Assembly: GCA_044892525.1 (NCBI GenBank) | Contig: CM097885.1 | Coordinates: 32,986,001 to 33,050,000, forward strand | From: Schmidtea polychroa | Taxonomy: Eukaryota | Length of the DNA stretch: 64,000 bases | Direction of reading: 5' to 3' | Shown: positions 1,600 to 62,361 of the stretch, one piece after another | Numbering within the stretch: the stretch's first letter is position 1 | Layout of the letters: every line of letters begins with the position of its first letter | Notes under the pieces: generated by a model | The model's database searches: none | Told to the model about the DNA's origin: nothing | What the model saw: the letters and a program-made list of their open reading frames with translations, nothing else | Translations under genes and position numbers: made by a program

Positions 1600-2562
1600 T
1601 AATCCTCATGGCAAGAACACCAATCATTATTGAAAGTGTCTATATGTATACATCGCTTATTCAGCAGCCTACACGTAGAATGTAAACGTGAATGGAAAGG
1701 AATAATGCAAAAACGCAAATAGAGGAAAATTAATTTTGAATACGATGTATAATTTTCTTCAAGAGTTTATTGTGTTAAACCTTTACAATGTGAATGGCCA
1801 CATGGTTTAAGTAGAATATCTTATATATTAAAGCATGCCTTGAACAGGAGGAAGGCAATTGTTTTTCCATTTCAATTTCGACAATCAATAGAGCGTTAAA
1901 AATATTTAAAAATAACTATGAAATTGTTTCATCGAGAATTGGATAGAGTCAATATGCCAGAAAAAATCTCGGCGCGAAAAGAATATGCTCTCTAGTTCAA
2001 TAACTATTTCAATAATGAAATGTCCAATGCAATATTTATTGATGAGTTTTCATTCAATTTGCATCTTAAAAGATCTTACTCAAAATCTAAACAAGGAACT
2101 CGCAGCAATGTAAAAATTTCAACTATTCTGGGACGTTCAATTTTCTCTAATTGCGAGTATGTTCCTTAGTGGGATGTTATATTGTAAAACAATCTCTCAT
2201 TCCGATGTCAATGCAGATATTTTCTCTTGCTATATTAATGAGCTAAGCATTCATCTAAGAAATGTGTAAAGAAAAATGTGTAAGAAAATGTATGCTTAAC
2301 TTTAGATAATGCAAGAGTGCATAAACGAGCAGACATTCATAGAATTACATCAGGATTTAATTATAATTTTAAATTTCTTGCGCCTTATTCTGAATCCTAT
2401 CGAAAATGCGTTTTCAAAAATCAAAAATGGGATTCGTTCTAGATTGTCATTAGGTGCCACTGGTAATTTATCTGAATTAATGTTACTAGAAGTTGATAAC
2501 GTTACAGAAAATGATTGTGCAGGATATTTTAGGCATATAATTCGAAATTTCATTAACTGTGG
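1600..2562 (+). mobile_element. Degraded IS630/Tc1-like DDE transposase remnant
   Basis: Manual translation across stops and frameshifts gives SISISTINRALKYLKIT..., AIFIDEFSFNLHLKR (first D), LTLDNARVH (second D), and LAPYS / LNPIENAFSKIKN (E). It ends abruptly at YFRHIIRNFINC (~2560). The 5' boundary is approximate. Confidence 0.85.
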
Positions 2563-2634
2563 CTGTTTCGACCAGTCAGAAGAGGAATGTCACTCACCTC
2601 TGACTGGTAGTTTGTTTGACTTTTCCTTTTGTTT

Positions 2635-2693
2635 CGCGTCTGTGTGCGTGGTATAAATTGATCGAATATTGTTGGGGTGCGCACACAGACGCG
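2635..2693. promoter_or_regulatory. GC-rich inverted repeat CGCGTCTGTGTGCG-N31-CGCACACAGACGCG, putative leader/regulatory motif
   Basis: Perfect 14-bp arms at 2635-2648 and 2680-2693. The same motif occurs three times at 61438-61664. The regulatory role is inferred only. Confidence 0.5.
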
Positions 2694-2857
2694 GGAAGTA
2701 GGTCTATTCTTTCACGATTTGTAATTTTTATGTTAGTTTTTTGTAGTAGATTTGTTTTGCTGCATAAAAGGTTTTTTCGAAATTTCTGGAATTGTGAATG
2801 CTTTGTAATTATAATTGTTTATCTGTTTATCGAAACCGGAACGTTGACAATAATTAA

Positions 2858-2986
2858 ATGAATCCAGAGTATGACTATTTATTCAAGCTTCTATTAATTT
2901 GAGATTCTGGTGTTGGAAAATCTTGTTTATTACTCAGATTGGCAGATGACACTTATACTGAAAGTTACATAAGCACAATTGGTGTT
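2858..2986 (+). pseudogene. RAB1: Rab1 N-terminal fragment with a premature stop in the P-loop
   Basis: ATG at 2858 reads [42 protein letters not shown], nearly the canonical Rab1 N-terminus. TGA at 2900-2902 replaces Gly of GDSGVGKS. Similarity stops before DFKIRT/WDTAGQE. Confidence 0.93.
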
Positions 2987-3115
2987 TTCTTTGTTCAAAA
3001 GATTTACCAAAACATTATTCTAAATGGTAAAATGAAGCGTTTCAGATTTAACGATAAACATAAAATTTGGATTGGGAAGATACTCATTGCTAGGAAAATT
3101 AGTTGTGTGGTGCAT

Positions 3116-3556
3116 ATTGTTGCAAAAAGAGAAGTTCCAGATAAAATGAGTGAGAAGAGTTCAGCTACAAGATTGTTTAATATCACTGAAAGTACTGGAG
3201 GTGTTATGACTGGTATGGTCCCTGATTGTCGATCTCAAGTATGTCGTGCACAAATGGAAGCAGCTCGATTTAAATATAAAATTGGATATGAAATGCCTTG
3301 TGATATAATATGTCGTTGTATTGTGGATATTAATCAGCTCTATACCCAGTCGGCTGAGATGCGACCATTAAGTTGTTCAATGATAGCATTATCTTATGAT
3401 GTTGAAATGGACAAACCGTTATTATTCAAAACTGATCCCAGTGACTTTGTAGCTGGACATCGAGCTGTTGCAGTTGGTGGAAAGCAATTGGAGGTTGAAA
3501 CTTATTCTGAAAAATACTCAAAGACAATTTTTGATATGGATTTTAATAAAATTGTT
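3116..3556 (+). pseudogene. PSMA6: Proteasome alpha subunit type-6 internal fragment, in frame with the Rab1 fragment
   Basis: [10 protein letters not shown]...[44 protein letters not shown]...[15 protein letters not shown]...KTDPS...AVGGKQ follows PSMA6 (VPDK...[23 protein letters not shown]...YTQNAEMRPLGC...KCDP). The N-terminal alpha signature (ITIFSPEGRLYQVEYA) and the C-terminus are missing. Confidence 0.9.
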
Positions 3557-3685
3557 GTCATCTTTATTAAATTTAATCATGGTTCTGATCTGATGTTCGT
3601 CAAGTTTAAGCAGTGGCGGAATTACTTTATATTCATCAATAAATATTTTTGTTGTTATTCTTTTATAAATTTTGTTTCTGATTAC

Positions 3686-25893: not shown

Positions 25894-27483
25894 CACCAAC
25901 CGGCATTTGATTATCATCAAATGGCCATTGATTTGCATATTTAATAATATAAATATTAACTTACCTATAATAAATGTGTGTATGTCATAGCCAGAAGGGA
26001 CATTCAATTAGCTAGGTGACATTGAATTAGTTCTTACACTATAGAAAGATAGAAAAAATTGCTGTTGGAAGAAAAATAAATAAATACATACACACACGGT
26101 TCACAAATTTTCTATAATATAAAATACACACTATAGGACATTGATTTATCATAAGGACATTCAATTAGCTAAAAATTTTCATTTTTAAAACAAATTATTA
26201 TCAAAATGTTCGAAGATATTTCAGAAGCTTCTTCAGAATCAACAATTCCATTTCAAGAAATTCATAGAAATGTGTAAGTTTTTCATTAAACTTTAATTAT
26301 TTTCTTAAAATCGATATAGAATTACCATTAAAGATAAAGAAAGAATCATTAAATCCATGGAAGATGGCCATGATTATTATGAATTAGGCCGTATTCTTGG
26401 AATTAAGCGGAATACAATAACCAGCATTATTTTGAAATATAAGAAGACTGGAATTTTATCCGCAGGAACAAGAGGAAGCAATCGACCAACAATTATCACA
26501 ACAATTATTGGTCAGGAATTATTGAACTATGTCGAAAGAAATTATTATTCGGCATTAAATCAAATTAGATTGTTTTTATCTACAAATCACAATGTAGAAA
26601 TTTCCACAAAATCAATATCCAGGAACCTGAAAAATCAATTATTAACCTTCAAAAGGATCAGGCCTTGTGTGGAAGAAAGAAATTCAGATAGAATATTGGA
26701 CATTCGGCAGACATATGTTACACGTCTGCTTGAAGAAGGTTGGAGGAGCAGTAAATCTATTTATATAGATGAATGGTCTTTCAATACATGGACAAACAAG
26801 AGATTCGGAAGATCTCGAGTAGGCACTCGAATTTACAGCAATGTGCCAACAAATCGAGGTACCAATATTTCATTAGTTTTGGCAATATCCAAAGATGGGC
26901 CAATCCATTCACAAATCATCATTTGCTCTTTTAGAAAGGAATCATACCAGTCATTTATAACAAAATTGACTGAGAAACTGAATGGCTCTGGATTCATTTT
27001 GATACACGATGATGTATCCATCCACAATAATGTATATTAGCAGTATATTATCTTTGAACAATCACATAGAAAAGTTACCTCCATATAGTCCATTTTTGAA
27101 CCCCATCGAAAGTGTGTTCAGCAAGATTAAAAATGGGGCAAGGACTAAAATTTCCTCGGCTAATGGATTTTCCAGGATGAGTTTCAATGACAGATTTACC
27201 GCAATATCCCAAGCAGTTATCGAGGAACTTAGCAAACCAGATTATAGTAATTTGAAAAATTACTATAATCATATTAAAAGGTTCTTCCCTAAATGCTTGA
27301 AGAAGCAGGATATTTTAGGTGAATTCTGAAAAATGTAATGTATATTATAATAAATAATTAAATATCTTACTTCTTTATTCATTATTTTAAAAAAATTCTT
27401 AAAATTAACTAAAATCCAAAACAAAGCTTATTTGACAAAGCTAAATGAATGTCTCATTTATGATAATTAAATGCGCTTTGGTG
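25894..27483 (+). mobile_element. Full-length IS630/Tc1-like DNA transposon, 1590 bp, TA TSD
   Basis: Imperfect TIRs CACCAAccggCATTTgATTATCAT / CACCAAagcgCATTTaATTATCAT, flanked by TA at 25892-93 and 27484-85. The empty site with a single TA is seen at ~57778. GACATTCAATTAGC subterminal repeats are present. Confidence 0.9.
26206..27329 (+). pseudogene. IS630/Tc1-like DDE transposase with a predicted 46-nt intron (26274-26319) and one frameshift (~27033)
   Basis: HTH region ELGRILGIKRNTITSII, then IYIDEWSFN, LIHDDVSIH and LPPYSPFLNPIE. Exon 1 (26206-26273) joins in frame across GTAAGT...TAG. ORFs 26357-27040 and 27009-27329 overlap in different frames. Confidence 0.9.
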
Positions 27484-35773: not shown

Positions 35774-36604
35774 TAAAGAGTCAACACAAAAAAGCATGGA
35801 AAATTAATGATAAGTAAAGTATGGATCTAAAAATTGAATTACAGTAAGTTATGGGCTCAGATTTTTGAATTATAGTAAATTATGGACCTAAAAATTGAAT
35901 TATTGTCTAAAATTTTAAATTAAAGTAAATTAAGGTTCCAAAAAAATTAAATTAAAGTTAATTAAGGTTCAAATTTTAAAATTAAGTAATCAATGGTCAA
36001 AAATTTTAAATTAAAGTTAAATAAGTAAATTAAAGTAATAATTTTTAAAAAAATAAAATTAAAGTAATGTAATAAGTAAATTAAAGTAATAATTTTTAAA
36101 TTTATTAACAAAAAGTGTTTGAGAATTAAAATGTTTTAATGAAAATGTTTTATGGAATAATTTTTCAAAGTTAATTTTAGATGCAAATCTTTGTCAATTA
36201 ATCATTCACTACATGAAATTATTGATTAAATATGTATATAAGGGTTATATTCGGTTGTTAAGTAAATTATATTGTAAAATAAAAAATGAAGTAATAAAAA
36301 GATAAATAGGTAAATTAAGGATAAATAAGTAAATTATATTTCGTAAACAAAGGTTTAATTAAGTAATCAATGGTCTAAAAAATTAAATTAAACTTAAATA
36401 AGCAAAATTTAAGTATTAATTTTTAAATAATGTAAATTAAAATAATAATTTTTAAATAAAAGAAAATTAATCTAATAAGTAAATTAAAGTAATAATTTTT
36501 AAATTTATTATCAAAGGATTGAATAACCATCAACTTTTTTGAGAAATATAATTTTTAATGAAAATTTTAATGGAAATTTTTTTAAGTTAATTTTTAATGG
36601 AAAT

Positions 36605-37225
36605 CAACTAAGTATTCCTTATTGTATTTTATCAAATGATTTTTAAATTAATTTTTTTTATTTGTCTTCAAAAATATTTTTAACTACAATCAGTAGAAAA
36701 ACTCTTTCTAAATGTCTAAATTTAACAAATATGATGATTTTTATCAAAAATAAATAATTGTCAACTCAACACCACGTAGAATTGAAGATAAAATTACAAT
36801 GAAAGATTATTGAATTCTAATTTTTATTCACAAAACATTCTTCTTTTAATTGATTACTACTGACTTATTATTGCAATGTAAAAATTGCATTTAATAAATA
36901 ATTATTATTGATTCGTTTTATTATATATACTCTGAGTTTATCCGATAGGATGTTTTGACCGCCTAAGGGTATTGGTCATAAGGGTACTGGTCATAAGGGT
37001 ACTGGTCGTAAGAGTATTGGTCACACTCAATCCCCACCTACTCATTAACTAGCTACCATGTACTAACAACTAGGTCTCAAACAACTAAATACTAAACACT
37101 TACAACTAACTACCATGTACTAACAACCACCATCAAAACCCCTCGAGAAATTAACAAATATCAACCTACAACTATATAACAACAATCAGTTAACAACACT
37201 ATACCAACTATCAAGTTCAAGATAC
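36605..37225 (+). repeat. Left arm of a ~620-bp inverted repeat
   Basis: Reverse complement of ~41041-41661 with few mismatches. Contains 4 x 15-bp AAGGGTACTGGTCAT (36965-37024). Confidence 0.95.
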
Positions 37226-38250
37226 CAAAAACTTAGAATCATCAACCAGTAACTTACGAACATGTATTTACAACCAGATACCAAGTACTTAAAACAAGAT
37301 ACCAAACGCTATCAGTCAAGTACTTACAACAAGATACCAAGCACTATCAGCAAAATACTATCAACTAGATACCAAGTACCAACAATCAACTAACAACACT
37401 TAAAAATAATAGCAATTAAATACAAAATATTCTTCATCACATACACTATCTTCTTATCAAAATCTAAAAAGTCAACCAGATACCAAGTACTTACAACCAA
37501 TAACTATGTACTACCAAATTGATATTTAAAAGAAAATACTTTTCACTTGAAAGATTGGATGAAAAATTAATAAAATTTCGATTGAACTCGAGATTTTCCA
37601 ATAACTTGGTAAAAATTGATTTAATAATTGTAAAAATTTAAATTCTTCAAAAACATAATAAATAACAAAATGTAATTAATGGACAAGAAAGAACTTTAAA
37701 TTCTAGTCATTAATCATCCAGTAAATAAAAAAATACTGATAATTCAAGTTAATATCAATCAACTAAGATAATAAATTAATAAGAATTTTGAAATAAGATC
37801 TAATAGATAATTCATTTAGATTGAATAAATTAATTGAAATAAATTTATTTTAATTATTTTTTTTAAAAGTAATACATGCACTCAAATTCATCGAGTGATT
37901 GATCAAATTCAACAATATCTTAGAAATAAATAACAAAAGAGACTGATATAAGCCCACTAGTGATAACATCTAATAAACCAGTAAATTCATTTAAATGACA
38001 ATAATTGGTATATCCAAGTGAATTTCCCACTAAAATCATCTAAAGAGCATAAAATTTCCCTGAAATATCTCTGTCTTTAAAGATTAGTATTTTAACGATA
38101 AATACCCTTAGAAGGATATATATTTCCCTCAGACTAATAAGAGTCCTTAAAATCCCTTTAAATGACTATAATTCTAACTTTAATTTCTATTATCACGAAT
38201 ATTTCCCTATAAAACATGTAAAATAATTTGGTCATTAACCCTAAATAATT

Positions 38251-39420
38251 TATAAAATCTAATGATAAAACCGGTTATAATTTAATTTTTGTTAATCACT
38301 GTAAATTTTTGTAAATCACTGTACTCGAAATTAAAAATAAATATAACTAACTAGGTCCCATTGAAAGATTAAATTTATCCATTCAATAAAATATATTTCT
38401 TCAAATGGTCAACTCTTGTCGTTGTCCGTCTAAATAAAGATAAAAATAATTTAAAGTTGATATCAATCCCAATTATCTGTAAAGATTTCATTGTCAAAAT
38501 CAAGTAAATCGATCATTATCCTTACTTAATAAAACATTGCTTTAAATTAATTTACTGTGCATTAATCACAACCTAATAAAACGATATAATTTCACATTAT
38601 TATTGATTCATAACTGACTAATGTATTGACATTTCCCATAAACATTGATATTTTACCAACATCACCCTTAAAAAATCAGATATTCCCACCTTATCTGATC
38701 TCTCATTAAATCTAACCAACTGTATCTCCCTTAAAAGATTATAAAATCTAATGATAAAACCAGATATAATTAAAAATGATTAAGAATAATTAAAACTTTT
38801 GTTCTAAATTACTCGAAATTTTAAATAAATATTACTGTACAATATAACTGACTATGTCCCATTGTAAAACTTAATTTATTTATTCAATAAAATCTCTATA
38901 TTATTCAAATGGTCATATTTAACCGATATTCAACCGATATAATTTCTAATTAAAATCACCCGATAATTTTCTTCCAATAAAGATCAATTTTCTTAAGTTG
39001 TTATTGATGCTTTAACTCAATATTTCTCAACTTTTGTTTGCCTATAACATTTACATAAAGATAAAAATAATTTAAAGTTGATGTCAATCCCAATTATCTG
39101 TAAAGATTTCATTGTCAAAACCAAATAAATCGATCATTATCCCTACCTAATAAAACATTGTTCTAAACCATAAATCTAAATTAATTTACTGTGCATTCAT
39201 AACAACCTAATAAAATGATATAATTTCATATTATTATTGATTTATAACTGACTAATGTACTGTCATTTCCCTTAAAACATTGATATTTACTAACATTACC
39301 CATTTAAATATTCAAAAGATTCCCACATTAACCGATACCCCATTAAATCCAACCGATTATATCCCCTTAAAAGATTATATATTCCCACCTTATCCGATTC
39401 CTCATTAAATCCAACCGATT
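38251..39420. repeat. Internal diverged tandem duplication (~500-600-bp units) plus ~60-bp subrepeats
   Basis: TATAAAATCTAATGATAAAACC at 38251 and 38740. TAAAGATAAAAATAATTTAAAGTTGAT...CCCAATTATCTGTAAAGATTTCATTGTCAAAA at ~38435 and ~39056. Confidence 0.85.
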
Positions 39421-40724
39421 ATATCCTCCTTAAAGATCCTAAATTCCCATCTTAACCGATCTCTCACAAATTTGTTTACCCTTTCAAACATCTAACCAAC
39501 TATATCCCTTAATTCTACCCACTTGAGGTTATATCCTCCTTTAATTCAGTCAATCCTCTTAAAATCCTTAGAGAACTTCAAAAATATGAATTTTCATTAA
39601 CTGTTATAGACACCAGACATTCTTCCATTGAAATAATTTAGAAGCTAAATAATAAGAACCCACTAATGGATCAAAAATCAATATATTCTACAAATATTTC
39701 ACCCATCAAATACCTAACTAGAGATGATATATATTGATTGATCATAATTCTTCAGCGATTAAGCCAATCATTTTCAAGCAAATATAGCAACCTAATCACA
39801 AATTTCAGTATATCTTACAATAAATTTCAAGTAAATTTAAAATATCTATCCTTGATAAAGTTAACTGGTTTCTTAGCTCATGTTTTTTTAAAGTTCATCA
39901 ATGTGTAAATGTAAATATTCTTAGAAAATTATTCAAAAAAAATTATTAGTCAAATCTATTTACATTACAAAGTTATCATCAAAAATTTATTCTATCACTT
40001 GATTATTAACCTAATTGTCATTGAAATTAATTTTTATCTAAAATTTAAAAACAATTCAATAAAATTCAACTAATTATCAAAAAATTAATTAAATTTATCA
40101 ATTAAATTTATTAGAATCGCCATTAAAACCTTAAATTTTAAAAATTTCTTTCAGTCAACATAAAATTCTTAGAAAATTATTCAATATCATCATCATCAAA
40201 ATTTAACCTATCACCTGATCATTAACCTAACTGTGGTGGTGTTATATTTAACCAATTCAAATTTTTCTAGCAAAATTATTATCAACTGACAGTATAACTC
40301 ATTACAATCATCAACATTTTCGAATTTAATATAACCAGTTAAATCCAAAATTATTTCGCATAAATGCTCACTGTTAATGTTGGAAATCAGATCCAAAGTG
40401 TTCGATATTAATTCAAAGGATTCTTGCAAATATTTCATTTTTGTCATTCTGCTAAGTTCATTGTTTGTGCAAATGTTCTAATTGATCCTTGTTCGTTATT
40501 ATTTAGGCTACTTTATTTTTTTATATATAATATTTATATAGCTTTTGTTAAGGCCGTATAACGGCTCTCTACACTAACTGTCATTAAAAATAATTTTTAT
40601 TTAAAATTAAAAAACAAGTCAATAAAAATACATCCAATTATCAAGAAATTAATTAAATTTACCTTAGAATTAACATCAAAACTTAAAATTTTTAAATATT
40701 CATTCAACCAACATGAAATTCAAG

Positions 40725-40872
40725 AAAATGATAGAAATACACAAAAATAACAGAAATTCACAAAAATGATAGAAATTCACAAAAATGATAGAAATTCACA
40801 AAAATAATAGAAATTCACAAAAATGATAGAAATTCACAAAAATAATGGAAATTCATAAAAATGATAGAAATA
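40725..40872. repeat. Minisatellite of ~20-bp AAAAATGATAGAAATTCACA, about 7 copies
   Basis: Read directly. Confidence 0.9.
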
Positions 40873-41040
40873 TTTACTAAAACCATCAACTCTAAAAATT
40901 ATCAATGAATGCCTTAAACAACAAATTTGCCTAAATAATCATTCAAATAAAAGCATTAAAATCAAATACCAGTACCTTTATGATCAGTATCCGTGCGACA
41001 TGTTGAATGTGAGTAGTACCCTTGTGAGCAATAAGTTGTT

Positions 41041-41661
41041 GATATCTTATACTTGGTAGTTGGTATAGTGTTGTTAACAGATTGTTGTTATATAGTTGTA
41101 GGTTGATATTTGTTAATTTCTCGAGGGGTTTTGATGGTGGTTGTTAGTACATGGTAGTTAGTTGTAAGTGTTTAGTATTTAGTTGTTTGAGACCTAGTTG
41201 TTGTACATGGTAGCTAGTTAATGAGTAGGTGGGGGTTGAGTGTGACCAATACCCTTACGTTCAGTACCCTTATGACCAGTACCCTTAAGACCAACACCAT
41301 TAGGCGGTCAAAACATCCTGTCGGTTAAACTCAGAGTATATATAATAAAACGAATCAATAAAAATTATTTATTAAATGCAATTTTTACATTGCAATAATA
41401 AGTCAGTAGTAATCAATTAAAAGAAGAATGTTTTGTGAATAAAAATTAGAATTCAATAATCTTTCATTGTAATTTTATCTTCAATTCTACGTGGTGTTGA
41501 GTTGACAATTATTTATTTTTGATGAAAATCATCATTTTTGTTAAATTTAGACATTTAGAAAGAGTTTTTCTACTGATTGTAGTTAAAAATATTTTTGAAG
41601 ACAAATAAAAAAAATTAATTTAAAAATCATTTGATAAAATACAATAAGGAATACTTAGTTG
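41041..41661 (-). repeat. Right arm of the ~620-bp inverted repeat
   Basis: Reverse complement of 36605-37225. Confidence 0.95.
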
Positions 41662-41789
41662 GTTGATAGTACTTGGTTGTTTTTACTTAGTTGATAGTAC
41701 ATGGTACTTGGTAGCTGGTTGTAAGTACTTGGTATCTAGTTGTATATACCTGATAGTTGTTGTTATCTGATTGTTGAATAATTATCAGA

Positions 41790-42527: not shown

Positions 42528-42781
42528 CTAGGTTTTTAAAATAGTTGATGAAGTATTTCTTATTCTTTGGGGACTCCTGCGACGAGTGATTGGGGTTTCA
42601 GCATCCTTGATTGATTTATTAGACTTTAAATGTGACGTTCCATACTGACTAAAATAATTTTCCGAGCGCAATATATCTTCAATATTTCTACATCGACATT
42701 TAATTATCTGCTTCAGCGGCGTTCTGAATTCTCTATTGAAAATCGCATAAATTATTGGATTCAAAAAACTGTTTGTGTATC
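42528..42781 (-). CDS. HTR7: Terminal exon of an aminergic class A GPCR, most like invertebrate serotonin 5-HT7 receptors (TM7, helix 8, C-tail)
   Basis: Acceptor TTTTTTTCAG|GA (phase 1), then [48 protein letters not shown]...stop. It has the NPxxY motif, and the FR.P...RC...R..Y..QYG tail is typical of protostome 5-HT7. The subtype is less certain than the GPCR call. Confidence 0.88.
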
Positions 42782-43442
42782 CTGAAAAAAACATATTCGA
42801 GTTATTCAATTATATCAATTTTAAACAAAAAGATGTAATGTGAATGTAAAGATTAAAGATGGTTTCTCGGTAGCAGCACACATTAAATGTTAAACAATGA
42901 AAGGATAAGATGAGGTTGAAAAGGATTATCAAATAATCGAAAATTTTCTCATCTACTTTAATAAATATTTTGCATCAAATGCTCATCTTATCATTTACTT
43001 GTTATAATATAAAAATTATTACAACAATTTTCGAAAATCCTTTCGCTTTTTACTCTTTACTTTAACGTTTTACTTATTCATAATGGATGTTATTTACGAT
43101 TTTTTTATCGTCTTTCCTTAAAACTTGAGGTCAATGTGTTGACTTCTTCATAACAAATATATGCAACAACATATTTACTAATAGTCTGATAAACAAAGTC
43201 AAACTAGACTTTTGAAATGGCTAGTATTTAATTTAGCATTAATATAATAAAGCTTTAGCATTAATTTAATAGCATTATAGAAATTATTTTTAAGCATTAA
43301 GTTATTTAAAGAACTGCATTAATTTAAATGAAAAAATACATTATTCAATTTAAGAAAAAACATTAGACAAAAAAAACTATTATTTAATATTATTTTGAAA
43401 TTGCAAAAAATCACAGATCATCATTTATAAAATTGTCATTGT

Positions 43443-47141: not shown

Positions 47142-49682
47142 CAGTAGTACGCAAACTTTTTACCTCCCGGCACAAAATAGAAAAAAAAGTCAAGGCACAA
47201 ATAGAAAGAATGTATCTTTTATATAGAATTTTTTTAATAAAATGAAATTACATGTATATATTTTATTTAATGGGATGAGTGCGCTTGCTTTTTGTCGCAA
47301 ATAAATTTTATACGTGGTTCGATTTTTGTTAAACAAACTCGCAGCTCATCATCCAACATTAGCAATCGCTCTCTCTTTTTAGATTTAATCTCTGTGAGTG
47401 CAGAGAATCTGAATTCGCACAGATATGAGGATCCAAATGGCAGCAGAGATTTGATGGCTTTTAAACTTAAATCAGGATATTGACTTTTTACGAAAATCCA
47501 AAATTCTGGCAAGTCCTTCTCAGCAAGCGCAGCTTTCAAAACTACATCATTTTTCAATTCAATGAGTTTTTCTTCTTCTGCAAAGACAGAGACACATCAT
47601 TGTGGCATATGAATGGATTTATCACCCAACCATATTGTGAAGTATCAAGCGACGGAAAATATTTGGAGAAAGATGAAAAAAGATTTTGCAATGTTTCATA
47701 GATTTGGTTCATTATTTTGCTCTGATTTTGAGAAGCATGGACACCTGGCAAAAATTCAATGTTATTTTCTTTTGTCTGTCTGATCCAAAGTTGCAGTTTT
47801 TCATCGAATGCTTTGAGTTTTCCTGTAATTGTGATCATATTTTCTTTCTCACCTAGCAGACTTTAATTAAGTAAGTTCAATTTTTCAAATAAATCGTTCA
47901 GAAAAATAACTTCCAGCCACCATATATTGCTTTCAAGAAACTCGAACTTACCACCTTCAGTAGAAAAATAGGAAATAATCTCAGTTCGCAAACTGACAAC
48001 ACGAGCAAGCACTTTCCCCTTCGAGAGCCATCGGACTTCTGTATGACATAGTAAACTTTTGTGATCTGAATCCATTGCCTCACATAAAGACGTAAATATT
48101 CTTGTCCGAAACGGATTTGACTTGATGTAGTTAACTATTTTGATTACTTCATTCATTGTTTGCAGAAGCTGAGTGGGCAGAGCTTTTGAAAGTAAAACTT
48201 CTCGATGAATCATACAGTGCACAATTTTTACTTGTGGATTGCGATGCAAAACATAAGCAACAAAGCCTTTGTTCCGTCCTTGCATTGCTGGAGCTCCGTC
48301 AGTGCAGACACTAACACAGTTATCCCATTGGAGTCCCTTTGATTGAACTTTTTGATTGACCAGCTCAAAAACATCTTTTCACGTGGTATTTTTCGTCAGC
48401 TCACTACAGAAGAAAAATTGGTTTTTAATTTTTCCTTCTCTGGTGAATCGTAGAAACGCAATCAACTGAGCTTTGCTACTGATATCAGTCGATTCGTCAA
48501 TTTGAAGCGCCCAAAGTTTTTCAAGTTCATCTGTATTTGCTACGAAATGCTCATGAATCTGATTGTCAACGTCCTGCGACATGTGTTGAATTCTTCGAGA
48601 AATTGTATCAGCTGACAACGGAATTTGCTTAATTTTTTCGACTGCTTGATGGTTGAACATTAATTCAACGGCAATTTCTAACGCTGGCAAAATAATCTTT
48701 TTGGCATCAGTATGTGACTTTTTATTTTTGCATAAAAGTTGAGCAATTTTATAGCTAGAAATTTGGGCTTTTTTAGGGATCGAACAAAATACCTTAATTT
48801 GTTTTGACTGCCTTTGTAAATTAGTTCGGAGGTGGTCAAAGTACATTTTTGGTTTATTCTTCATTTCTGGATGTTTTGTTTCCAAATTTCGATGAAGCTT
48901 ACTTGGTACCATTGATTCATTTGCAAGAGTTTTTGAGCAAATTAAGCAAAAAGGAAGAGAACTATCATTTTCTGATGGAATAAACCCAATTTCAATATAG
49001 TCGTCTTGATATTTGCGCTTTGCCAAACTGTTTGATTTCGCATTTGATTTTGGATTTTGGACATTTTCATGTCCAGTTTTCTGAGTTCTTGATACAAATT
49101 TATCCATAAGGATGCTTTGTATTAAAATAAATTAGTAATGGCTGTTAAGAAAAAAAATATTAAATTACTTGCTTGGAATAACAACAATTTAGATCACTAC
49201 CAATTAATTAATAACCTTTGTCAAATCGAAGAAATATCTGGAATTTTTATCAGTTACTAATAATAATCGATAATAATAATAATGTTTTTATTAAATAACT
49301 TCTATTCACTTACGATACAAACAAAATAATGAGTTCTACAAATTTCCCCACTATAAATTTTGAAATTTTTTACGAATGGCTTTATTCCAATCATAGTATT
49401 AAAAATTTCAAAGAAAAATAGCAAGCCTACTATGGAAAATTTAAAACAAATTTGAATTTTCCATAAAAAATTCAAATAAATAACGGTCACTTTTATCAAT
49501 TATTGTTACTTCTTGACAGTGTTTTGTTTTTATTAAATAACTACAAAAAATATTTTAACTTCTTTTTTTTATTATATAACTAAAAAAAATATTTTCGTAC
49601 TAAATATTTTCGCATTAGCGGCACATTTTAAATTCTTTTACGGCACACTAATATGCCGCGGCACATAGTTTGCGTACCACTG
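47142..49682 (-). mobile_element. Full-length Buster-type hAT transposon, 2541 bp
   Basis: 16-bp TIRs CAGT(G/A)GTACGCAAACT. Perfect 8-bp TSD ATTTAGTA (47134-41, 49683-90) with the central TA typical of Buster elements. Confidence 0.96.
47267..49107 (-). pseudogene. Buster/ZBED5-like hAT transposase with two in-frame stops and one frameshift
   Basis: BED-like CLIC...SMVPSKL..LETKH, LQIDESTD, VCTDGAPAM, HCMIHRE, HTEVRWLSKG and LLPFGSSYLCE. Stops at 48379-81 and 47863-65 are in frame; the frameshift is near 47580. Confidence 0.95.
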
Positions 49683-61189: not shown

Positions 61190-61364
61190 CAGGGGTTGGC
61201 AAGTGCGGCTCTCAGAGTCACATGTGGCTCTTTGATGAGCTGTGGGGCTCCAACTGAGATCTGATTTTATAGTAAATATTGTCATATTGCAATATGTTGT
61301 GGCTCTTTGTAATACAGGGAAAACCTGTATCTGGCTCTCGAGGACCTCATTGTGCCCACCCCTG
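61190..61364. mobile_element. Buster-type hAT MITE, 175 bp
   Basis: TIRs CAGGGGTTGGCA / TGCCCACCCCTG. TSD AAATAAAT / ATATAAAT (7/8 match, central TA). Internal GGCTCT subterminal repeats. Confidence 0.88.
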
Positions 61365-61437
61365 ATATAAATGATCACTTTGCGAAAAATACAGATTTAG
61401 GAATTGTGAATTGCAAGTGTGATTAATTGTCGATGCT

Positions 61438-61664
61438 CGCGTCTGTGTGCGCTTTGTACTGGTTTTGGAGGTTTTTGTGTGCGCAGACAGACGCGGAGAA
61501 TGGTAAATTATGAAGTTAATTCACGACTGTGTGCGCTTTTTACTTTCTTTGTATTTGGGTTGTGTGCGCACACAGACGCGTAACATGGTCGCATTATTAG
61601 TTTATCTCGCGTCTGTGTGCGCTTTTTGCTTTGTTGATTTGGATTGTGTGCGCACACAGACTCG
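61438..61664. repeat. Array of six 15-bp CGCGTCTGTGTGCGC repeats in alternating orientation
   Basis: Forward arms at 61438, 61522 and 61608; reverse arms at 61481, 61566 and 61650; spacers 26-29 nt. Confidence 0.92.
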
Positions 61665-61851
61665 GAAAAGTGAGAAGATTATGTTTCAGTTTTGTTGGAT
61701 CGATCTCAGAGTTTTTTGATGAATGGAGTTTTAATTGTATCGAGATTTTTTATGGTATCGATTTTTTAGAGTTTGGAGTTATGTTTTCTGGAATTGTGGT
61801 TTTAAAGAACTGATTTATAATTTTGATTTGAATTTTTGGCCTTAGCGAAAT

Positions 61852-62361
61852 ATGGAAGATAATGAATGTTTGATATGTATTTCAATGAGCAATATGTTAA
61901 AGAGATGTTTTTTCAGCAGTGGAACTTGTCCATGTGATCGTGGCTCAGCAAGATCGTTGCAAATTATTAATAGAAGTTTTTCAAAACGATTGGAAATCAA
62001 CGATTTAATTTCTGTAAATCATGAAATGACAGCAGAGGAACTCCAAGAGATGTTTATGAAATTTCCCCAAAGCGATAAAAAGATAAACTTGCTAACTTAT
62101 GGATATGATATTCTATTCAATCGAGCCCTTAAAAAGATCAACACAACTCCAATGTTTATTAGCCGAAGTGTTGAACAATTATCCAATGTTTCAAATTCAA
62201 TCATGGCTCAATCTCAAGTTATTGGACACGATAAATGGTTTTGTACAAATAAAGCGTGTGATATTAATTACAATGAAATTCTTCTGATGTGTCTTAAATT
62301 TAAACAAAGTGTTTATACAAATATAAAATTAAAATTAAAAAGCGTTTTTTTATATTTCTAA
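61852..62361 (+). CDS. Hypothetical 169-aa Cys-rich protein, possibly a gene fragment or first exon
   Basis: A 510-bp ATG-initiated open frame is long for such AT-rich DNA, and it lies downstream of the repeat array. N-terminal CxxC...C...CxC; C-terminal W-x-C-x4-C-x10-C-x2-F. No recognised homologue. Confidence 0.45.
   Translation: MEDNECLICISMSNMLKRCFFSSGTCPCDRGSARSLQIINRSFSKRLEINDLISVNHEMTAEELQEMFMKFPQSDKKINLLTYGYDILFNRALKKINTTPMFISRSVEQLSNVSNSIMAQSQVIGHDKWFCTNKACDINYNEILLMCLKFKQSVYTNIKLKLKSVFLYF

Follow-up and report, generated by a model that had tools for sequence, protein, structure and literature searches.

BEL/Pao retrotransposons, including the planarian Flow families, share with the family reported here their LTR ends, a 5-bp target-site duplication (TSD), a tRNA primer-binding site (PBS), a polypurine tract (PPT) and the order Gag, protease, reverse transcriptase (RT), RNase H and integrase, as far as the accessible part of that article goes (PMC3118150). 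The present family differs in that its reading frame has its start inside the LTR, runs across the PBS and has a ubiquitin placed before Gag; in the main text of the Flow article, so far as accessible, the word "ubiquitin" is absent. Retroposition mediated by LTR elements through template switching likewise yields partial intronless host mRNAs and multi-gene chimeras, and the accessible sections of the study describing it report microsimilarity at the junctions and further rounds of transposition, citing maize Bs1 as an example (PMC5131818). The retrocopies described there are internal, with element sequence on both sides, whereas the cargo of the present family lies inside both LTRs and in solo LTRs, occurs also in full-size copies bearing pol, is a regular feature of the family and stays in phase with Gag. 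Judged as a retrocopy in the sense of Tan et al., the cargo is intronless partial host mRNA but is not internal. The family is a BEL/Pao member that works like LTR-mediated retroposition, with capture placed inside the LTR and subject to a frame constraint.

Two further systems show a partial resemblance. The LTRs of Sireviruses possess a palindrome-rich repeat block in their cis-regulatory part; however, these are plant Copia elements whose palindrome region is, in the accessible portion of the report, a hotspot of sequence change (PMC4728375), whereas the arms described below are the most conserved part of the LTR. Cytopathic BVDV carries captured cellular ubiquitin inside its polyprotein together with mosaic cellular inserts, but it is an RNA virus without an LTR and the events are sporadic, according to the available part of the source (PMC13517609). 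The arrangement reported here is not described in the accessible parts of PMC11410931 and bioRxiv 10.64898/2026.01.28.702291. A literature search returned no description of LTR cargo in frame with ubiquitin-Gag; Repbase, Dfam, subscription journals and supplements lay outside its scope and may hold one.

In the window, by which we mean the whole 64-kb stretch of DNA analysed, eight copies of a 15-bp arm were found at up to 3 mismatches, where 100 shuffles gave an expectation of 0.00. Six of them form the array at locus A, starting at 61438(+), 61481(-), 61522(+), 61566(-), 61608(+) and 61650(-), with start-to-start distances of 43, 41, 44, 42 and 42 bp, and the remaining pair, 2635(+)/2679(-), belongs to locus B. 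An earlier note on this DNA had described six regular copies every 41-44 bp; the alternation and spacing hold, but not the identity, since only three of the six are exact (0, 1, 2, 0, 0 and 1 mismatches in order). The hairpin it had placed at 2635-2693 is present, although the arm at 2635 has 1 mismatch. The array folds with z = -3.98 and perfect 15-bp stems, and Rfam gave 0 matches across the whole window. An exact 14-mer at both loci and the ATGs at 2858 and 61852 were also found as the note had reported; its reading of the array as a leader common to two separate genes fails, as both ORFs lie inside the same LTR as their array. The features are as follows.

2559..2563, no strand: left TSD of LTR B, GTGGC
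2564..3612, + strand: solo LTR B, 1049 bp, TG...CA, inserted into a Tc1-like transposase remnant
2635..2693, + strand: single arm pair of LTR B, from the arm scan
2783..2796, + strand: TTTCTGGAATTGTG in LTR B, 5 nt 5' of the captured Rab1 mRNA, a sequence match
2802..2986, + strand: captured spliced Rab1 mRNA with 5' UTR, its own ATG (2858) and codons 1-43, lacking two introns; identity to the host exons near G000:C2 3000324 is 95-97%
3123..3513, + strand: captured intronless fragment of proteasome alpha-6 (PSMA6), CDS nt 152-542; 94.6% identical to the host gene
3545..3550, + strand: AATAAA, likely poly(A) signal of LTR B, 68 nt from the LTR end
3613..3617, no strand: right TSD of LTR B, GTGGC
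61415..61419, no strand: left TSD of LTR A, AAGTG
61420..62306, + strand: solo LTR A of the BEL/Pao family, 887 bp, TG...CA; dispersed copies share both end bases, some behind a polypurine tract and one before a PBS
61438..61664, + strand: three tandem units, each of two inverted 15-bp arms flanking a T/G-rich 26-29-nt spacer, from the arm scan; likely U3 enhancer/promoter repeats
61785..61798, + strand: TTTCTGGAATTGTG, a subfamily-level LTR motif directly 5' of the cargo in LTR A, possibly near the U3/R border
61852..62304, + strand: ORF of LTR A with 151 codons and no stop before the LTR end, its phase being that of the PBS, from the frame scan
62248..62253, + strand: AATAAA, likely poly(A) signal of LTR A, 59 nt from the LTR end
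62307..62311, no strand: right TSD of LTR A, AAGTG

The surroundings of these loci hold several other features. The Tc1/IS630-like transposase remnant split by LTR B runs from ~1900 to 2563 and beyond 3613, another lies at 26309-27329, and a broken hAT-like transposase occupies 47267-49131 on the - strand (all recognised by eye). A large inverted-repeat element spans 36602-41664, with arms 36602-37063/41203-41664 (97%) and 37065-37235/41032-41202, and an interior of ~3.8 kb of tandem repeats with strong skew flips. On the - strand, 42528-42809 is probably the last exon of a GPCR that resembles amine receptors and has an NPIIY motif, so the window may lie in host introns. Directly 5' of LTR A is a short element, 61190-61364, multi-copy in the contigs compared, with the ends CAGGGGTTGG...CCCACCCCTG.

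The TG...CA ends, the 5-bp TSDs and the dispersed copies with the same termini identify both window loci as solo LTRs. Genome-wide, 359 exact junctions between LTR end and PBS were found, and the PBS matches the 3' end of host tRNA-Met(CAT). Of 40 PBS-junction loci taken as 10-kb stretches (20 from the first 30, complete-looking ones being preferred, and 20 from the 21 that follow), 27 have a second LTR that is 95.8-100% identical and 8 have an interior of 5.6-5.9 kb, and PPT-TG occurs 27 times in all; an exact 5-bp TSD flanks 14 of 16 full elements. The Pfam order in L108 and L131 is DUF1759, RVT_1, Peptidase_A17, integrase zinc domain (a match below its curated cut-off) and DUF5641. The family hence has a DUF1759 Gag, an RT, a Pao RNase H and an integrase after the RT, as well as direct TG...CA LTRs, a short fixed TSD, a tRNA PBS and a polypurine tract. 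Shorter derivatives of 3.0-3.6 kb are without RT. That the window loci are LTRs of a BEL/Pao family, with the array making up the 5' part of the LTR, is practically certain.

The link between arms and LTRs was also seen starting from the arms. An LTR start word (at most 1 mismatch) stands directly before 38 of 48 consecutive arm clusters against a background of 21/320, the list of start words having been chosen in part from these same loci; a strict exact-TSD rule is passed by 12/48 against 1.5 by permutation, and 6/48 clusters have no LTR start. The suggestion of the earlier note that this was the terminal array of an unclassified element family with different coding cargo is thus right about a mobile-element terminus and the differing cargo and wrong about the classification. 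The outcome it had set against its own idea, a repeat terminus with no link to ORF starts, applies by half: the array is a terminus, but the link to ORF starts is real.

Some additional observations concern the elements themselves. A second small hairpin with 9-bp arms sits at the extreme 5' end of LTR B (2572-2607) and is typical of the subfamily starting with TGTTTCGACC, many of whose LTRs (L032, L035, L039, L180 and others) sit in (ATT)n microsatellites, which hints at a target preference. In L057 (3912-4240) the 5' LTR is ~330 bp and the 3' LTR ~870 bp, the two differing by internal loss and the number of arm units. Elements with common LTRs form tandem arrays with a period of ~4.47 kb in L204-L209 and L123. 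A tandem tRNA-Met(CAT) array with a 454-bp period lies in L200-L202 (G000:C1 ~79.33-79.39 Mb), and its 3' end has 1,228 matches in the genome. In L063 (4830-9140), a BEL fragment reaching from the PBS to a partial LTR lies inside CAGTGCTCGAAGTG inverted ends with an 8-bp duplication; this is a hAT-like element holding a retrotransposon piece.

The ORFs within the LTRs are mosaics of spliced host mRNA pieces, with an intronless host origin traced for two genes, Rab1 and PSMA6. Among 24 LTR frames, Pfam recognised pieces of proteasome subunit, EAP30/Vps36, DSPc phosphatase, Adaptin_N, TCP-1, Ras, RING and Hsp70, often two per LTR, while 6 frames had no match and 1 a marginal match only. Host PSMA6 (G000:C1:117275317) has three introns, two of them inside the captured ranges, and these two are absent in 11/11 and 62/62 spanning alignments (redundant loci included). 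Similarly, host Rab1 (G000:C2:3000324) aligns exon by exon with the cargo of L043 at 96-100%, with four introns removed. The stop at 2900-2902 in the Rab1 frame of locus B is private, occurring in 1 of 16 aligned copies. For the ORF of LTR A, a homolog search at 83-265 aa found none, and a genome search gave only high-identity copies among the matches listed. Further cargo was recognised by eye in L141, L152, L153, L146 and L151, namely a piece resembling myotubularin and a second, degenerate proteasome alpha subunit.

No arms were found near the host PSMA6 gene, and at host Rab1, where the earlier note had proposed to look for the upstream sequence, there is neither an arm pair nor the 14-mer, only one lone arm at the 3-mismatch level 3.6 kb 5' of the gene. 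The spacing from 14-mer to ATG noted earlier owes something to chance: at locus B, Rab1's own captured 5' UTR makes up the 56 nt that precede the ATG, and the joining of this UTR and ATG directly behind the 14-mer explains the spacing there. Of 50 5' LTRs, only 9 have the core of the 14-mer, TTCTGGAA, behind their last arm. At the 3' junction of PSMA6, host and LTR tail agree at 11/12 nt, over AATAAA, and the Rab1-PSMA6 junction shows an imperfect A-rich overlap only. An AATAAA occurs 33-59 nt from the LTR end in 42/50 copies, against 0.12 per 100 nt further in, a position that points to a short U5 and to an R that is long and filled with cargo.

Cargo also moves between lineages: it is 97% identical over 649 nt in two lineages whose proteins are only 36% identical, which implies that LTRs have been exchanged. 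This exchange, together with the origin of the cargo in housekeeping genes and its presence in nearly all long LTRs, could be taken to mean that the cargo is adaptive as RNA, a host-like, fast-changing leader and trailer hiding the element from piRNA or other surveillance. We consider this unlikely, since the constant internal region would stay a target and neutral tolerance combined with mRNA abundance explains the pattern.

The reading that we favour, capture tolerated under a frame constraint, draws on the frame itself. In yeast Ty1, GAG has its start within the LTR and its coding sequence takes in the PBS; that element is not known to carry variable host cargo or a ubiquitin. In the present family, among 50 of the first 51 PBS junctions (5' LTRs), the frame in phase with PBS and ubiquitin-Gag is the longest upstream frame in 48, and it reaches at least 100 codons in 36/50 as against 0 in the other sense frames. 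It passes from there through a variable linker, then one or two ubiquitins, to Gag; in 20/50 it is open all the way from an LTR ATG through ubiquitin. Of five linker lengths found in more than one copy, four keep the frame. Both ORFs of the window end in PBS phase, and relatives of LTR A (A-type LTRs) read through into ubiquitin in L233 and L234.

Selection along this frame is graded. In the PSMA6 cargo, compared with the host gene as reference, variants shared by at least two of 54 insertions show pN/pS 0.95 and 1 stop against 7.1 expected, while singletons show pN/pS 1.07 and 8 stops against 9.9 (shared versus singleton stops, Fisher p = 0.087). Shared indels are mostly in frame or compensating, the exceptions being a 1-nt and a 14-nt deletion, each in two copies. 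Stops are not depleted in the A-type ORF, where 2 shared ones stand against 1.5 expected at low power, and of its indels the one that is shared is in frame and 8 private ones are not. Shared variants give a pN/pS of 1.4 for the linkers and 1.2 for the upstream ubiquitin. The Gag-proximal ubiquitin yields 0.34 and 0.13, Gag 0.11-0.59 and protease/RT 0.11-0.18, and the short two-ubiquitin derivative has a neutral tail (1.0). The copies are not independent, L072-L075 being near-identical. Purifying selection thus acts from the Gag-proximal ubiquitin onward, with neutral drift upstream, and the comparisons indicate that the amino acids of PSMA6 cargo and linkers drift neutrally (pN/pS ~1-1.4) while frameshifts appear to be purged.

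The terminal GG is retained in 32/34 Gag-proximal against 7/11 upstream ubiquitins, and it seems reasonably likely from this pattern that cleavage at ubiquitin releases Gag. Ubiquitin inserts of BVDV serve as such a cleavage signal. The Gag-proximal ubiquitins end in LRLCGG and LGLAGG, not LRLRGG, so cleavage by a host deubiquitinase is not assured, and linker methionines could start Gag. Among 30 selected database relatives, ubiquitin precedes DUF1759 in two, and in a third a short ...KGG remnant stands at the start, placing the ubiquitin-Gag fusion before the origin of this family without making it general; a homolog search with ubiquitin-Gag gave matches dominated by polyubiquitins. Alternatively, Gag might keep its ubiquitin, which would then mark it for trafficking, stability or degradation, and the open frame would serve only to avoid an upstream-ORF block or nonsense-mediated decay. 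The non-canonical C-termini, the purifying selection along the whole ubiquitin and the closing of the domain with LKLRGG or LRLKEG in related Gags would fit such a role; it is nevertheless doubtful, as the GG is so widely retained and Gag would have to assemble carrying a random N-terminal extension of 300-400 residues.

The 781-Mb host genome (G000), which is AT-rich, has four large contigs and is presumably that of a planarian, contains 6,424 exact arms against 0 for the reversed control; the first 100 matches fall into 59 clusters, from which ~3,800 LTR clusters are estimated (extrapolated from 10.7 Mb). The arms start ~16-71 nt inside the LTR, in 1, 2 or 3 units (104, 50 and 11 clusters) with a period of mostly 82-96. 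In LTRs selected by PBS alone they were found in 41/50, with a mismatch of 5.4%, and spacers of equal length are 62-68% identical, confirming that arms are conserved better than spacers. The arm pair was not found in viral and metagenome contigs, weak evidence as these hold little animal DNA.

Perfect stems and the folding score, and the location of U3 at the 3' end of the genomic RNA adjoining the polypurine tract, may raise the thought that the arms act as RNA or single-stranded DNA hairpins in packaging, reverse-transcriptase pausing, strand transfer or as a small-RNA source, roles proposed for Sirevirus LTR palindromes in the accessible part of PMC4728375. On analysis of the variation, wobble-keeping and pair-breaking transitions were found in 54 and 59 units (14 and 12 events), with no G.U preference, and two-sided changes in 2/237 units, with no clear compensatory change. 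Moreover, arm spacing is held at its mode of 42-44 bp although the spacers themselves diverge. With neither an Rfam match nor compensatory covariation, the arms do not class as a structured non-coding RNA, at the low power that the covariation test has because arms vary so little. We regard the hairpin role as unlikely. Conservation without pairing compensation favours, again at low power, a DNA site read by its sequence over a selected hairpin, and the arms are likely protein-binding enhancer repeats. Their spacing near four helical turns and the variation in unit number resemble the enhancer duplications of retroviral U3. From their position, a promoter role is probable, although LTR exchange between lineages could homogenise the arms without selection.

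A promoter is hence a plausible part of the portable promoter/leader proposed earlier; its independence of the transposon, or an origin as a Helitron or TIR element end, is very improbable, a single weak Helitron_like_N match of the LTR A ORF (E = 0.0048, below cut-off) standing against TSDs, TG...CA, PBS, PPT and paired LTRs, intronless cargo and parent genes (Rab1 and PSMA6) without an arm pair. Helitrons make no TSD and their captured genomic fragments retain introns, and they are ruled out by the 5-bp TSDs and the intronless cargo. Non-LTR retrocopies and LINEs have a poly(A) tail, variable TSDs and 5' truncation; a retrocopy of this kind or a LINE 5' monomer array is ruled out by the fixed CA end and the lack of a tail. 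A TIR element end is ruled out by the same LTR hallmarks.

On the reading that we hold probable, the array is the 5' repeat block of a BEL/Pao LTR and a likely sequence-specific enhancer/promoter, while the remainder of the LTR brings together parts of spliced host mRNAs whose frame continues into ubiquitin-Gag; this extension is likely removed at the ubiquitin. In the mechanism that we propose, the arms would drive transcription, which would start between arms and ATG and end ~15-40 nt before the LTR end, so that the cargo would form a long R region. Reverse transcriptase copying U5-R may switch onto a co-packaged host mRNA at microhomology and then back, and both new LTRs would thereby inherit the captured piece. 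Ribosomes would start at the LTR ATG, and consequently only sense, in-frame and stop-free captures would keep Gag-Pol translated. A deubiquitinase or the element's own protease would then cut after Gly-Gly; with Gag freed in this way, the protein sequence of the cargo would be irrelevant and capture tolerated.

By placing the site of capture in its LTR, ahead of a ubiquitin that can be cleaved, a retroelement would gain a simple route to cheap host-gene capture, and the gradient of selection, neutral before ubiquitin and constrained after it, makes the capture model directly testable. The conserved arms offer a defined DNA motif with which to look for the factor that binds it. More speculatively, and with little confidence, a lineage with a cleavable ubiquitin tag may have turned its LTR into a standing cassette for exon shuffling and camouflage, in which strand transfer would sample the stem-cell mRNA pool, the many promoter-bearing LTRs would express chimeric host peptides and host-matching RNA, and turnover itself would be selected as an escape from piRNA surveillance. 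In this animal, the estimated ~3,800 LTR clusters would mimic Rab1, PSMA6, DUSP12 and other genes, and such LTRs would be a source of error in annotating genes, in judging RNAi specificity, in mapping reads and in interpreting "genic" piRNAs.
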